Source of the DNA: a virus
DNA: 17,129 nt
Reading direction: 5' to 3' (one strand)
Virus genome (UHGV): UHGV-0039940
In this document: positions 7,053 to 14,684 of the stretch, piece after piece
Layout: the number at the start of each line of letters is the position of its first letter
Numbering within the stretch: the stretch's first letter is position 1
Notes under the pieces: generated by a model
Seen by the model: only the letters and a program-made list of their open reading frames with translations
Told to the model about the DNA's origin: nothing
Database searches by the model: none
Translations under genes and position numbers: made by a program

Positions 7053-7950
7053 TCTTGCAACCGTAACACATTTAAGGCCTTCACAACGGCCTGTGGAGCG
7101 TCGTGTGGCAGAAGTTGAAGATGGTTATACCCGTCTTGCAAATGCCCTGTATGAAGAGCTTATCGGCGCAGATTTAACGAAAAATCAGAGCAAGGTTGCC
7201 CACGCCATATGCCGTAAAACATACGGCTACGGTAAAAAGATGGATCGCATCTCTGATAGTCAGTTAGCTCAAATTACCAGGCTGCCAAGACAGAAGGTAA
7301 ACAAGGCCAAGAATGAGCTTATCGCGATGAAGGTTATCCTTCGCGAAGGCCAGCAAATCGGGCCTAACAAGAACATCGAGGAATGGCAAATCGAAGGGTG
7401 TCACTACTCTGGTGATAATGTCACTGCATTGGTGACAAAAAGTGTCACCAAAACGGTGACAGCGCTGTCACCAAAACAGGGACACACAAAAGAAACTATT
7501 ACAAAAGAAAAAAGAAAAGATTATTCGTCCGAGAATTCTGGCGAATCCTCTGACCAGCCAGAAAACGATCTTTCTGTGGTTAAACCGGATGCTGCAATTC
7601 AGAGCGGCAGCAAGTGGGGAACAGCAGAAGACCTGACCGCCGCAGAGTGGATGTTTGACATGGTGAAGACCATCGCACCATCAGCCAGAAAACCGAATTT
7701 TGCAGGGTGGGCTAACGATATCCGCCTGATGCGTGAACGTGACGGACGTAACCACCGCGATATGTGTGTGCTTTTCCGCTGGGCCTGCCAGGACAACTTC
7801 TGGTCCGGTAACGTGCTGAGTCCGGCCAAACTCCGCGACAAGTGGACCCAGCTCGAAATCAACCGTAACAAGCAACAGGCAGGCGTGACAGCCAGCAAAC
7901 CAAAACTCGACCTGACAAACACTGACTGGATTTACGGGGTGGATTTATGA
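7045..7950 (+). CDS. O: Replication initiator O (chimeric: heterologous N-terminal origin-binding domain, lambda-type C-terminal domain)
   Basis: 301-aa ORF; the C-terminal half (...[49 protein letters not shown]...DWIYGVDL) matches lambda O, the N-terminal half does not. Confidence 0.9.
7391..7525 (+). other. Replication origin inside O: GTGAC/GTCAC-type iterons followed by an AT-rich tract
   Basis: Repeated ggtgac/gtcacc units (ggtgacaaaaagtgtcacc, ggtgacagcgctgtcacc) then acacaaaagaaactattacaaaagaaaaaagaaaagattatt. Confidence 0.6.
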
Positions 7951-8540
7951 AAAACATCGCCGCACAGATGGTTAACTTTGACCGTGAGCAGATGCGTCGG
8001 ATCGCCAACAACATGCCGGAACAGTACGACGAAAAGCCGCAGGTACAACAGGTAGCGCAGATCATCAACGGTGTGTTCAGCCAGTTACTGGCAACTTTCC
8101 CGGCGAGTCTGGCTAACCGGGGCCAGAACGAACTGAATGAAATCCGCCGCCAGTGGGTTCTGGCTTTCCGGGAAAACGGGATCACCTCGATGGAACAGGT
8201 TAACGCAGGAATGCGCGTAGCCCGTCGGCAGAATCGACCATTTCTTCCATCACCCGGGCAGTTTGTTGCATGGTGCCGGGAAGAAGCATCCGTTATCGCC
8301 GGACTGCCAAACGTCAGCGAGCTGGTTGATATGGTTTACGAGTATTGCCGGAAGCGTGGCCTGTATCCGGATGCAGAGTCTTATCCGTGGAAATCAAACG
8401 CGCACTACTGGCTGGTTACCAACCTGTACCAGAACATGCGGGCCAATGCGCTGACTGACGCGGAATTACGGCGCAAGGCTGCCGATGAACTGACCTGTAA
8501 GCACGAATTAACCGTGGTGAGACGATACCTGAACCAGTAA
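7947..8540 (+). CDS. P: Replication protein P, truncated by a frameshift near 8493-8500 (C-terminal residues continue in another frame to 8644)
   Basis: [42 protein letters not shown]... matches lambda P up to ...RRKAADEL, then diverges to TCKHELTVVRRYLNQ-stop; the lambda-like ARINRGE.IPEPVKQLPVMGGRPLNRAQALAKIAEIKAKFGLKGASV is encoded in a different frame ending at 8642-8644. Confidence 0.8.
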   Translation: MKNIAAQMVNFDREQMRRIANNMPEQYDEKPQVQQVAQIINGVFSQLLATFPASLANRGQNELNEIRRQWVLAFRENGITSMEQVNAGMRVARRQNRPFLPSPGQFVAWCREEASVIAGLPNVSELVDMVYEYCRKRGLYPDAESYPWKSNAHYWLVTNLYQNMRANALTDAELRRKAADELTCKHELTVVRRYLNQ

Positions 8541-8640
8541 AACAACTTCCTGTCATGGGCGGCAGACCTCTAAATCGAGCACAGGCTCTGGCGAAGATCG
8601 CAGAAATTAAAGCTAAGTTCGGACTGAAAGGAGCAAGTGT

Positions 8641-8931
8641 ATGACGGGCAAAGAGGCAATTATTCATTACCTCGGGGCGCATAAGAACTTCTGTGCACAG
8701 GACGTTTCCGCGGTAACAGGCGCAACCGTAACCAGTATAAATCAGGCTGCGGCTAAAATGGCGCGGGCAGGAATCCTTGTCATTGATGGTAAGGTCTGGC
8801 GAACGGTGTATTACCGGTTTGCTACCAGGGAAGAACGGGAAGGAAAGGTGAGCACGAACCTGATTTTTAAGGAGTGTCGCCAGAGTGCAGTGATGAAACG
8901 GGTATTGGCGGTATATGGAGTTAAAAGATGA
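8641..8931 (+). CDS. ren: Ren (protects against Rex exclusion)
   Basis: 96-aa ORF MTGKEAIIHYLGAHKNFCAQDVSAVTGATVTSINQAAAKMARAGILVIDGKVWRTVYYRFATREEREGK... matches lambda Ren as I recall it. Confidence 0.85.
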   Translation: MTGKEAIIHYLGAHKNFCAQDVSAVTGATVTSINQAAAKMARAGILVIDGKVWRTVYYRFATREEREGKVSTNLIFKECRQSAVMKRVLAVYGVKR

Positions 8932-9020
8932 CCATCTACATCACTGAGCTTGTAACAGGCCTGCTGGTAATCGCAGGCCTTTTTATTTGGGGAAGAGTAA
9001 TTGGAGGCTTTAAGAAATGA
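8928..9020 (+). CDS. Small hydrophobic peptide (30 aa), translationally coupled to ren and the next gene
   Basis: ATG overlaps the ren stop (ATGA), GGAG 8 nt upstream; MTIYITELVTGLLVIAGLFIWGRVIGGFKK is a single predicted transmembrane segment; its stop overlaps the next ATG. Confidence 0.3.
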   Translation: MTIYITELVTGLLVIAGLFIWGRVIGGFKK

Positions 9021-9232
9021 GTACGATAGCTGAGCTTGTCAGGGCTAATTTTCGTGAAGAGTTGGTGCGTTGGTATCGGTATCGTTCATCGTCCAGTTTG
9101 CCGCTTGATGAGTTGTATGAGCATTCACCTGCCGCACGACGCTATCCGCGTGACCGTGTTCTTCGACGGTTGTTCAAACTCAACAATGAGTTTCAGCGCA
9201 ACAGAATTATCCGGAGTCTGGATTTAAAGTGA
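9017..9232 (+). CDS. Hypothetical protein (71 aa), nin-region small ORF
   Basis: ORF MSTIAELVRANFREELVRWYRYRSSSSLPLDELYEHSPAARRYPRDRVLRRLFKLNNEFQRNRIIRSLDLK in the coupled gene string after ren. Confidence 0.5.
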   Translation: MSTIAELVRANFREELVRWYRYRSSSSLPLDELYEHSPAARRYPRDRVLRRLFKLNNEFQRNRIIRSLDLK

Positions 9233-9242
9233 AGGAGTGAGC

Positions 9243-9479
9243 ATGAGCGACCTATCATTAACCCAGCCAAAGCTAAAAGAATGTCCGTTTTGCGGCGGTA
9301 ATGCTCGTCTGTGGGTTGAGGCCGGAATAAATATTGATGTGTGGGGCTATGCAGAATGTGACCTCTGTGAAGCCAGGGGGGCGTGGGCACCATCAGTTGC
9401 TGCGGCGGCTGAAAAATGGAACCGGAGAGCAGGAGATGAAGCAAACCTTTCTGCTTCGCAACGAAGCAATCAGAAATAA
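9243..9479 (+). CDS. Lar-family restriction-alleviation-like protein (zinc-ribbon CxxC...CxxC)
   Basis: ATG at 9243 after GAAGGA; MSDLSLTQPKLKECPFCGGNARLWVEAG...YAECDLCEARGAWAPSVAAAAEKWNRR has the two Cys pairs and EKWNRR motif typical of Lar/RalR-type proteins as I recall them. Confidence 0.55.
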   Translation: MSDLSLTQPKLKECPFCGGNARLWVEAGINIDVWGYAECDLCEARGAWAPSVAAAAEKWNRRAGDEANLSASQRSNQK

Positions 9480-9882
9480 CGCCATAGACGCCATTCTCTC
9501 ACTACCCATCGACGACAAGTCACCCCACGAAGTCCACGTTAAAGAACCCAAGCGTAGCAAAGCGCAGAATGACCGTATGTGGCCGATGCTGAACGATGTT
9601 TCGCGTCAGGTGCTATGGCATGGTCAACGGCTGGCGCCGGAAGACTGGAAAGACCTGTTCACTGCCCTGTGGCTTAAGACCAAAAAACTGGAGCAACGAA
9701 GTGCGCCTGGTATCGGCGGTGGCGTTGTCATGCTTGGTGTGCGCACCAGCAAAATGCGGAAGGCCAGCATGACTGAGCTTATCGAAATCATGTTCTGGTT
9801 CGGCTCAGAGCGCAACGTGCGGTGGAGTGATGACTCCTGGCGAGAGTATGAATGGTCACAACGAAAAGGGAAGGCTGCATGA
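9436..9882 (+). CDS. ninB: NinB (Orf recombination mediator family)
   Basis: 148-aa ORF from MKQTFLLRNEAIRNNAIDAILSLP... with DVSRQVLWHGQ..., KMRKASMTELIEIMFWFGSERNVRWSD resembling lambda NinB; overlaps the Lar-like gene by 44 nt. Confidence 0.75.
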   Translation: MKQTFLLRNEAIRNNAIDAILSLPIDDKSPHEVHVKEPKRSKAQNDRMWPMLNDVSRQVLWHGQRLAPEDWKDLFTALWLKTKKLEQRSAPGIGGGVVMLGVRTSKMRKASMTELIEIMFWFGSERNVRWSDDSWREYEWSQRKGKAA

Positions 9883-10406
9883 CTATCAAATCAAATACGC
9901 CAGCACACGACAAGGACTGCTGGCAAACGCCGCTTTGGCTTTTTGATGTACTGGATATTGAGTTTGGATTCTGGCTGGATTCGGCAGCGAGCGACAAAAA
10001 TGCTCTGTGTGCTCACTGGCTAACTGAGGCCGACGACGCGCTCAATTCTGAGTGGGTAAGCCACGGTGCAATCTGGAATAACCCACCGTACAGCAATATC
10101 AGGCCGTGGGTGGAAAAAGCCGCTGAGCAGTGCATACAACAACGACAGACGGTAGTGATGCTTGTGCCAGAGGATATGTCTGTCGGATGGTTCAGTAAGG
10201 CTCTGGAGAGTGTTGACGAAGTTCGCATCATCACTGATGGACGGATTAATTTTATCGAACCATCGACAGGGCTGGAGAAGAAGGGAAACAGCAAAGGTTC
10301 CATGCTGCTGATTTGGCGACCGTTCATCAGTCCTCGACGGATGTTTACTACCGTATCCAAAGCGGCATTGATGGCGATCGGGCAGGGCGTCAGGAGGGCG
10401 GCATGA
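9879..10406 (+). CDS. Orphan phage DNA N6-adenine methyltransferase
   Basis: ATG overlaps the ninB stop (ATGA); the protein contains the motif IWNNPPYSN (NPPY catalytic motif of N6-adenine methyltransferases). Confidence 0.8.
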
Positions 10407-10585
10407 GGCGACAGCGACGAAGTATCACCGACATCATCTGCGAAAACTGCAAATACCTTCCAACGAAACGCTCCAGAAATAAACCCAGGCCAATCCCAAA
10501 AGAATCTGACGTTAAAACCTTCAATTACACGGCTCACCTGTGGGATATCCGGTGGCTAAGACATCGTGCGAGGAAAACAAGGTGA
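10403..10585 (+). CDS. ninE: NinE
   Basis: 60-aa [63 protein letters not shown] matches lambda NinE; ATG overlaps the methylase stop. Confidence 0.85.
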
Positions 10586-10645
10586 TTGACGTGATGATTT
10601 ATTCGGGGCTATATTCCTCACGCGCCAGCAAAATCTGGCGTCGGG

Positions 10646-10845
10646 ATTAGGAACCCCGGATAGAAACCGCGACAGAGACACGCCGCGAGCGTGTTTTTTA
10701 TTGTCGTATGCACACGCACATCTGAATTATGGTGGGGCGTATAGGGGAGCTGAAAAGCTCGCCGGTTGGTTTCCCGGTAGTTCCTAACCCTGTACGTCTC
10801 GCCACCCGATGATTAGGAACCTGACGGTGGTGATAGTTTAGAAAC
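10646..10845 (+). promoter_or_regulatory. Repeat-containing leader upstream of the ORF6N-like gene (ttaggaacc motifs in direct and inverted orientation)
   Basis: gattaggaacc at 10646-10656 and 10811-10821, inverted gttcctaacc at 10780-10789; tagaaacc at 10661-10668 and 10838-10845; candidate promoter TTGTCG (10701-10706) / AATTAT (10725-10730). Confidence 0.4.
10678..10700 (+). terminator. Rho-independent terminator after ninE
   Basis: ACACGC-cgcga-GCGTGT followed by TTTTTTATT. Confidence 0.6.
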
Positions 10846-10862: not shown

Positions 10863-11546
10863 ATGACAACTCAAGTTTCTGTTGAAACACTCTCCACGAT
10901 TACTTACAAGCAGATCCCCGTTATCACTACCGAACTTTTGGCGCACCTTTACGGCACAGAAGCTATTCGTATTCGCCAGAATCACCACGAAAACAAAGGT
11001 CGTTTCATTGAGGAAAAACACTTCTTCAAACTTGAAGGTGAAACTTTACGTGAGTTCAAGCACAGAGTAGCTTTTAACTACTCTGTGAAAATTGCCCGTA
11101 ACGTTCGCTCCCTCATCCTATGGACAGAACGCGGCGCAGCCCGTCATGCAAAAATGCTCGAAACCGATCGGGCGTGGGAAGTGTTCGAAAAACTGGAAGA
11201 CTGCTATTTCAGCCAGTGCGAGAAAAATACTGGCAAACAAGAGAAGAAGCCCAACGGGCTTTCCGCAAAAGAAACAGACAGCCTTGTATGGCTGTGGGAT
11301 TATGCCAACCGCTCACAGGCATTGTTCCGTGAGTTGTATCCCGCATTAAAACTGATTCAGTCTGGCTATTCCGGCATATGCCACGACTACGGCTATGAGT
11401 TCTCGTATATCATCGGGAGGGCGAGGGGCGTTTTAATTAATCACACGCGGGATATAGATATTTATGAGCCTGACGGGCCGACGAACCTTCTGGCATGGGA
11501 AAGGCTTAAGAACAAAGAGTTGCCGCCTTCACTGCATCGCTACTGA
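10863..11546 (+). CDS. ORF6N-domain-like protein (antirepressor-associated family), terminator-bracketed moron
   Basis: 227-aa ORF with GAGGG RBS; N-terminal part (...[50 protein letters not shown]...) resembles the ORF6N domain as I recall it; flanked by terminators at 10678-10700 and 11563-11590. Confidence 0.6.
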
Positions 11547-13510: not shown

Positions 13511-13599
13511 CCATAATTAGAGGGTAAGCTGCCGTTAGTGACTCTTAAGTTGCAACGGTGGCTTTTTTTATTTGGGTCAGTCGTATAAAGGTCATTACG

Positions 13600-13648
13600 G
13601 AAGGCTGTTAACCTTCTTATCGTGGTTCGATTCCCGCTACCCGCTCCA
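13600..13648 (+). other. tRNA-like fragment (3' two-thirds of a decayed tRNA: anticodon arm with GUU, T-loop, CCA)
   Basis: Anticodon stem-loop gaagg-CTGTTAA-ccttc (13600-13616), T-loop G-TTCGATT-C (13625-13633), CCA at 13646-13648; T-stem and acceptor stem do not close and no 5' half pairs. Confidence 0.3.
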
Positions 13649-14409: not shown

Positions 14410-14648
14410 CAGGGTATCAGTTACCCGTTGAAATTTTTAAATACCTCACAATTCAGGCGGTTGACTGTTGTCTGGTTTGCGGGGAGTTTGTTAAAAGAAA
14501 CTGGCATGGTGAATCCCCCTGTGCGGAGGGGCAATCAGCAACTGGTGTTTTGTCACCGACCCTTATCCTTTCTGTGCGGGTTCAGGTGCTGATACTGAAC
14601 TCACCGGGAGGCACCCGGCACCATGCAATGGCACATAGCGCCACTCTC

Positions 14649-14684
14649 CAGCCCCTCTCCGGAGGGGCTGTTTATATTGATTTT
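14649..14684 (+). terminator. Strong rho-independent terminator
   Basis: CAGCCCCTC-tccg-GAGGGGCTG followed by TTTATATTGATTTT. Confidence 0.6.

Follow-up and report, generated by a model that had tools for sequence, protein, structure and literature searches.

The 17,129-nucleotide (nt) virus genome UHGV-0039940, hereafter called the window, carries on its plus strand an overlapping chain of genes around the recombination gene ninB, in which a Lar-family zinc-ribbon gene lies on one side of ninB and an orphan N6-adenine DNA methyltransferase gene on the other. Read from the list of open reading frames (ORFs) and the raw sequence, this rightward chain starts with a conserved ORF of 30 amino acids (aa) (8928-9020; phrog_5907) and continues as a block of five genes. 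The first of the five is a DUF7301 gene of 71 aa (9017..9232; PF23975, E 3.8e-26; phrog_1785; same name given by PGAP); it is followed by the Lar gene of 78 aa (9243..9479; PF14354 and TIGR03655, both above their cutoffs), by ninB of 148 aa, which encodes a recombination mediator of the Orf family (9436..9882; PF05772, E 9e-48; phrog_72; alignment with lambda NinB), by the methyltransferase gene of 175 aa (9879..10406; PF05869, E 1.5e-64; TIGR01712) and, as the last of the block, by ninE of 60 aa (10403..10585; PF05322, E 2.7e-43). Lar and ninB overlap by 44 nt (9436-9479), and the overlaps of ninB with the methylase gene and of the methylase gene with ninE are 4 nt each (ATGA). The E-values of the hidden Markov models exclude chance for these gene assignments. 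The original prediction, made from the letters of the DNA, had described a Lar-like zinc ribbon, an adenine methylase with an NPPY motif and overlapping genes strung around ninB; these identities hold, the 44-nt overlap is present exactly as it was described, and the domain searches, which might have reassigned either gene, leave both assignments standing.

PGAP draws the same five gene boundaries, including the 44-nt overlap, in a 99.1%-identical prophage of Escherichia coli SCU-104. Because the annotation of that prophage gives the order exo-bet-gam-kil-cIII, then cI-like/cro/cII/O/P/ren, then nin and Q, the window is, by this annotation, the early region of a lambdoid E. coli prophage. On the rightward operon the block follows ren/tR2 and precedes Q, with NinB, NinE and NinG present as in a lambdoid nin region, and each of the neighbours in and around it has an assignment (DUF7301, NinE, the antirepressors, NinG and Q).

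In phage lambda, ren is followed by a 73-nt gap that contains a terminator and then by ninB-ninC-ninD-ninE. In the window, a terminator scan placed an intrinsic terminator downstream of ren, inside the 30-aa ORF; it consists of a stem-loop (8957-8980) and the T-run TTTTTATTT (8957..8989 in all, plus strand), is near-identical to the lambda ren-ninB gap and is presumably tR2, by comparison with lambda. The window is nearly an exact copy of lambda through ren and this terminator. Since the homology breaks at approximately 8997 and resumes only at ninE, and since the window NinB is only 45% identical to that of lambda, the segment of approximately 8998-10402, with DUF7301, Lar, another ninB allele and the methylase, evidently is a replacement module located just downstream of the tR2 equivalent. 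NinE again shows 95% aa identity to lambda NinE, as represented by the lambda-contaminant loci described below. Position and operon logic are therefore those of the lambda nin region, with ren, tR2 and ninE near-identical, whereas DUF7301 and Lar are found between tR2 and ninB and the methylase stands in place of ninC and ninD.

Of 5426 complete E. coli genomes, 482 have the complete block with identical PGAP names. The block also occurs in 114 phage records, which are mostly phages encoding Shiga toxin (Stx1a/Stx2), including VT2-Sakai, VT1-Sakai, 933W, BP-4795 and YYZ-2008. Compared with orf29-33 of VT2-Sakai (AP000363), a phage sequenced in 1999, the block shows 98-99% nucleotide identity, and Lar is identical to orf30 at 78 of 78 positions. 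The five genes, their order and their overlaps are shared by VT2-Sakai and by the equivalents in 933W, VT1-Sakai, BP-4795, YYZ-2008 and other Stx phages. VT2-Sakai differs by a few point substitutions in the block and by O and P of the HK022 type, where the window has O/P and ren of the lambda type; 933W differs by a frameshift in the Lar gene, a run of seven G (G7) in place of six (G6). The block is thus a well-known and correctly annotated module of Stx-type lambdoid prophages.

The 44-nt overlap had been taken in the original prediction as a sign that Lar was recently inserted. The conserved Lar domain spans residues 10-63 and ends at nt 9431; the 15-aa tail that follows it is encoded by the overlap with ninB and is a read-through to the first stop in the Lar frame inside ninB. 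The Shine-Dalgarno sequence of ninB (GGAGAG, 9424-9429) and its ATG (9436-9438) fall inside the codons of the conserved Lar motif W-N-R-R-A-G-D-E (9417..9440, plus strand), as read from the sequence, the family alignment and the Salmonella DNA alignment. A NinB search of IMG/VR returned only relatives at least 97% identical, and wider diversity was drawn from GTDB genomes and Lar homologues. All 80 IMG/VR loci with such a NinB have the whole block, amid ren, replication and antirepressor modules that differ from locus to locus.

Among the more distant relatives, Salmonella P0006 encodes a Lar that is 49% identical; the ninB that follows it is 92% identical, and the 44-nt overlap and the tail ...WNRRAGDEANLSASQRSNQK are the same. 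The DNA of the window and of P0006 is near-identical at the 5' boundary, AAAGTGAAGGAGTGAG[C/T]ATGAGC, and again from TGGAACCGGAGAGC... onward, and the Lar body between these boundary sequences has approximately 50% DNA identity; this is cassette exchange at conserved boundary sequences in its classic lambdoid form. The Lar genes of Salmonella P0143 (50% identical) and Kluyvera P0134 (45%) each overlap ninB by 44 nt, and that of Enterobacter P0141 (42%) does so by 29 nt. Erwinia endophytica has the same gene order, DUF7301-Lar-NinB-Dam-NinE, at 37-49% aa identity, and its Lar ends 18 nt upstream of ninB with no overlap. Two Atlantibacter genomes carry unrelated small ORFs in the Lar slot, which run to the same TAA inside ninB and give overlaps of 44 and 41 nt. 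The unity of the block, the divergence of the Lar alleles that share the overlap, the unrelated ORFs that end at the same stop and the ninB start embedded in a Lar motif together indicate that the overlap is an old, conserved junction belonging to the window type of ninB allele and not an insertion scar. The recurrence of the overlap, both in Lar alleles of 45-50% identity and in unrelated ORFs that end at the same stop, refutes the proposal of a recent insertion.

The two flanking genes had also been presented as an anti-restriction pairing. Lar and the methylase do occur together in the window block, Salmonella P0143, Kluyvera and Erwinia, and also in Enterobacter, whose methylase gene follows NinG and is not beside NinB. 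Six Salmonella P0006 loci, which read Lar-NinB-NinE-NinF, and Intestinirhabdus have Lar and lack the methylase. The methylase occurs without Lar as an allele 98-99% identical beside a lambda-type NinB (PhiR63_2, E. albertii and the locus L132), as one 97% identical beside a window-type NinB (Escherichia sp. E1V33) and as more distant alleles in Serratia and one Atlantibacter; lambda and Buttiauxella have neither gene. The window Lar allele is found in 119 phage records and the window methylase allele (at least 95% identical) in 244, and the methylase family as a whole in 1878, which include T1-like, Klebsiella, Vibrio and Gram-positive phages. Because all four combinations of the two genes occur, they are frequent neighbours in one successful module and not an obligate unit, and their association is loose at most. 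A pairing in the sense of a functional unit is accordingly not supported, the methylase allele being present also on lambda-type NinB in the absence of Lar.

The methylase scores 264.8 bits against the equivalog model TIGR01712 (cutoff 97.05) and matches 167 of the 169 profile positions of PF05869. Its catalytic motif IV, N-P-P-Y (residues 68-71; 10080..10091, plus strand), was read from the sequence and is invariant in 29 homologues. No cognate restriction endonuclease lies beside the gene, every neighbour being otherwise assigned, and the best PADLOC matches belong to the class 'orphan methyltransferase' (oMTase); both results bear out the description of the enzyme as one without a cognate endonuclease, and they rule out a type II restriction-modification system. 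The protein is identical at 174 of 175 positions to VT2-Sakai orf32, the only gene of that phage annotated as a methylase. In PMC6602927, which cites Radlinska & Bujnicki (2001), M.EcoVT2Dam from prophage VT2-Sa is called an orphan methylase that is 'known to target 5'-GATC-3''. Going by annotation, orf32 apparently is M.EcoVT2Dam, with which the description of the 933W copy as 'similar to methylases of bacteriophage HP1 and T1' agrees. On account of its near-identity to orf32, taken as M.EcoVT2Dam, the window methylase most likely methylates the adenine in GATC. The determination of the target, which the original prediction had put forward as a check, thus appears to have been anticipated as far as the reported specificity is concerned, the equation of orf32 with the enzyme so characterized being the part that is only inferred.

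Like M.EcoVT2Dam and the phage Dam family PF05869/TIGR01712, which includes the Dam-like methylases of T1 and HP1, the window enzyme is an orphan of approximately 175 aa with an NPPY motif and a score well above the equivalog cutoff; it is 30-49% identical to the members from T1-like, Klebsiella and Vibrio phages. The Dam proteins of E. coli and T4 are unrelated to it in sequence. A sequence search of the PDB with the methylase gave nothing significant, and a fold search of the PDB with its AlphaFold2 model (pLDDT 75) gave no match at E <=0.001, the weak top matches being assorted methyltransferases, including HsdM and METTL3/4, and uninformative. Orphan methylases expressed on exit are a recognized counter-restriction strategy of phages, termed 'protective methylation on exit' (PMC12707154). 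As a separate observation, GATC is moderately under-represented in the whole window (46 sites observed, approximately 69 expected), and a stretch of 1.8 kb (8597-10375) that spans Lar, ninB and most of the methylase gene contains none.

The Lar gene starts with the ATG at 9243, ahead of which lies the Shine-Dalgarno sequence AAGGAG (9232-9237). Its product scores 41.3 bits against PF14354 (E 1.8e-10; cutoff 28.6) and 62.3 bits against TIGR03655 (cutoff 39.6), and its match to phrog_599 labels the 78-aa protein a 'Lar-like restriction alleviation protein'. The signature of the family is K-P-C-P-F-C-G ... C-x2-C, followed by a helix with A-x3-W-N-R-R. In an alignment of 38 homologues, the window protein keeps the four zinc-ribbon cysteines C14, C17, C39 and C42, as well as F16, K12, A55, W59 and R62, and the replacement of P13 by E is its sole deviation at a nearly invariant position. 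The AlphaFold2 model has a pLDDT of 78 overall, 85-92 in the core and 52-65 in the tail. Among PDB sequences, Lar found only weak matches to the zinc ribbon of eL43 (E 0.009 or worse); in a fold search of the PDB, the model found nothing at E <=0.001, and the weak top matches, double-stranded RNA-binding domains or zinc ribbons, are uninformative.

The characterized relative of this protein is Rac Lar, also called RalR (K-12 b1348), to which it is 36% identical over 58 aa (E 9e-10). The two proteins share the Pfam/TIGR family, the pattern CPFCG...CxxC...WN(K/R)R and small size, and both are encoded by early prophage genes located beside recombination genes. They differ in that the window Lar, at this low identity, scores 27.6 bits against the RalR equivalog NF007260 (E 3.6e-6), far below the cutoff of 113, and in the RalA small RNA (sRNA) partner: a search for a RalA-like antitoxin sRNA gave no Rfam match in the window, and blastn with K-12 ralA gave only chance matches of 9-16 nt. 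Rac Lar is located downstream of recT, whereas the window Lar is located upstream of ninB and has the 15-aa tail made by the overlap. Rac Lar alleviates restriction by EcoKI and enhances modification, according to King & Murray (1995) as cited in PMC4041452. By analogy, restriction alleviation is the most likely function of the window Lar. The idea, already part of the original prediction, that both genes counter restriction is plausible by homology, with the 36% identity to Rac Lar/RalR for the one and the GATC specificity for the other. The window contains a single EcoKI site.

Lambda Ral is a further point of comparison, although it is outside the Lar family and has another genomic position, the lambda ral gene being located between N and cIII. 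It is analogous as a small early phage protein that eases type IA restriction, and it turns M.EcoKI into a de novo methylase (PMC3874165); the window Lar would likely have a similar phenotype.

A homopolymer of six G (9376..9381, plus strand) inside the Lar gene was followed by variant alignment and in-silico frameshifts. In 933W and other G7 variants, Lar breaks off after the second CxxC pair, and a G5 variant would, in silico, fuse Lar residues 1-46 in frame to NinB. A programmed frameshift at this run that yields a Lar-NinB fusion was considered and set aside as a curiosity, the sequence not being a canonical slippery site and no G5 variant having been seen.

We regard the block as the standard left end of the nin region of an Stx-type lambdoid prophage, a mosaic DUF7301-Lar-NinB-Dam-NinE that replaces ninB-ninC-ninD after tR2, and we give this reading, together with the working that we propose for it, a probability of roughly 0.85. 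Lambda genes behind tR2 need N antitermination and are silent in lysogens. From its position and by analogy with lambda, the block would be silent in the lysogen and would be transcribed from pR upon induction or infection, once N allows read-through of tR2. Translation would proceed as a coupled chain via the 44-, 4- and 4-nt overlaps, although the coupling itself is inferred. Because host Dam methylates only approximately half of the GATC sites of lambda DNA before packaging (PMC3299994), a delayed-early phage Dam may complete the GATC methylation of the fast-replicating phage DNA that the host enzyme leaves half-methylated. Completed methylation would shield the progeny DNA from methylation-sensitive GATC cutters in new hosts and from nicking by MutH. 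Lar, for its part, may alleviate type IA (EcoKI-family) restriction and enhance modification, in the manner of Rac Lar and the analogous lambda Ral. The two would be independent accessory genes that occupy exchangeable slots on either side of ninB.

Several points weigh against this account. Because Lar scores so far below the RalR equivalog cutoff, the transfer of function to it from Rac Lar is weak. Rac Lar itself was later characterized as RalR, a non-specific DNase toxin with an sRNA antitoxin (PMC4041452), and since the anti-restriction protein and the toxin are the same, its anti-restriction mechanism is in doubt. No experimental study of the window Lar allele was found in the searchable literature. 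The Lar gene is frameshifted in 8 of 80 related IMG/VR loci, and also in 933W and Min27, whereas NinB is intact in 80 of 80; the G7 form accounts for five of the eight, plus 933W, and the frameshifts reflect either weak or relaxed selection or homopolymer sequencing errors. On the side of the methylase, the step from orf32 to M.EcoVT2Dam rests on annotation, GATC methylation for the most part duplicates what Dam+ E. coli already does, and the roles of related phage Dam enzymes are packaging (P1) or unclear (T4) (PMC12707154).

Among the alternatives, the best survivor, which we consider possible and clearly the lesser option, is that the methylase serves chiefly the metabolism or regulation of phage DNA, through avoidance of MutH and mismatch repair, packaging, or lysogeny via supplementation of Dam, and not counter-restriction. 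Host Dam is reportedly required for stable lysogeny of 933W (Murphy et al. 2008, as cited in PMC3342100), a putative Dam methylase of phage Phi24B, possibly of the same family, was detected in lysogen cultures (PMC3342100), and phage P1 depends on its Dam for packaging at pac sites (PMC12707154); moreover, GATC is the site of host Dam itself, which leaves little to be gained against restriction in a Dam+ host. The points on the other side are all indirect. The position of the gene downstream of tR2 speaks against its expression in stable lysogens, and a metabolic role is compatible with a protective one in hosts that have MboI/DpnII-type systems.

For Lar, it is conceivable that the protein is a non-specific DNase toxin of the RalR type, acting in a type I toxin-antitoxin system or in host takeover, and not a restriction alleviator. 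Its 36% identity to a demonstrated DNase toxin (PMC4041452) and its weak match to the RalR equivalog model (E 3.6e-6) point in this direction. However, the 27.6 bits are far under the cutoff of that model, the window yielded no RalA-like antitoxin sRNA, and the gene belongs to a lytic delayed-early operon and does not lie beside an antisense RNA, so that we find this explanation unlikely.

We give similarly little credence to the proposal that Lar is tied to phage recombination, as a partner or regulator of NinB/Orf in the way of the Rac recE-recT-lar arrangement, with the overlap enforcing co-expression. In its broadest form, which we likewise hold to be improbable, Lar proteins would be obligatorily co-expressed partners of phage recombination, for example small factors that process or protect DNA ends, and restriction alleviation would be a side effect; such an end-processing activity would be consistent with the DNase activity of RalR. 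In its favor, the WNRRAGDE codons hold the Shine-Dalgarno sequence and ATG of ninB across Lar alleles that are 45-50% identical, Lar is directly upstream of ninB in E. coli, Salmonella, Kluyvera, Enterobacter and Erwinia, Rac-type Lar is directly downstream of recT in E. coli and Citrobacter, and a Lar homologue of a Ruminococcus phage lies approximately 400 nt from rusA. Nevertheless, other Lar homologues are found in unrelated early-gene contexts, the Lar slot can be filled by unrelated small genes with that very overlap, no Lar is needed for ninB of the lambda type to work, and adjacency is weak evidence in early regions that are so densely packed.

A dedicated two-part anti-restriction unit of Lar and methylase, with Lar recently inserted, would fit the plausible counter-restriction homologues of both genes, the presence of the methylase in approximately 114 of the 119 E. 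coli phage records with the window Lar allele, and the recurrence of Lar-NinB-Dam in Salmonella, Kluyvera and Erwinia, but it is hard to maintain when the overlap persists whether the slot is occupied by a Lar allele of 42-50% identity or by an unrelated ORF, Salmonella P0006 and Intestinirhabdus have Lar-NinB alone, approximately 130 of the 244 phage records with the methylase allele do without the window Lar allele, the same methylase allele sits beside lambda-type NinB, and the Enterobacter methylase lies after NinG and away from NinB.

Other features of the window deserve a brief mention. Gene P (7947-8648) has a 4-bp deletion (TGAC) after approximately 8499 relative to E. coli SCU-104 and lambda, and the resulting frameshift gives a product of 197 aa instead of 233 aa, with the normal C-terminus continuing in another frame; this may reflect a replication-defective prophage or an assembly error. 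Downstream of the block, Rfam matches to isrK (10622-10699), the c4-a1b1 target (10609-10662) and C4 antisense RNA (10725-10809) lie just upstream of an antirepressor gene (10863-11546), and this arrangement looks like an antirepressor module controlled by antisense RNA, of the P1/P7 immI-like or Gifsy-1 IsrK-like kind. Downstream of the Q gene there is a weak tRNA match (13574-13643, 32.6 bits) and a strong match to the sRNA STnc100 (14475-14679, 137.6 bits); in Stx phages, tRNA and toxin genes are located downstream of Q. On the minus strand, leftward of cIII, 2410-3093 encodes a putative nucleotide-modification protein of the 'Nmad5 family', according to the annotation of the matching prophage, and this gene of the early left operon is possibly another candidate for DNA modification or counter-defence.

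In the GTDB loci L106-L121, L133, L141 and L146, lambda ninB-ninF is present at 100% identity in species-representative assemblies of many unrelated taxa, including Pseudomonas, Oceanobacillus, Bradyrhizobium, Shewanella, Nocardioides, Paenibacillus and Veillonella. The carriers are contigs of approximately 48.4 kb or tiny low-coverage contigs, and the lambda genes in these taxa are almost certainly contamination with lambda DNA.

The block has been public in Stx-phage genomes since 1999 and current pipelines name its genes correctly, so that its value as a discovery is small. It nonetheless provides a clean example of lambdoid mosaicism, in which short conserved boundaries flank an exchangeable gene slot, and it illustrates that an extensive overlap between genes may mark an ancient junction instead of an insertion scar. 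Many Shiga-toxin phages carry this Lar allele, which routinely receives the label 'restriction alleviation' for a function that is putative and assigned by homology. Of mild interest for the family are the embedding of the ninB start in the C-terminal motif of Lar and the recurrent location of Lar genes beside recombination genes, as in recT-lar and lar-ninB.

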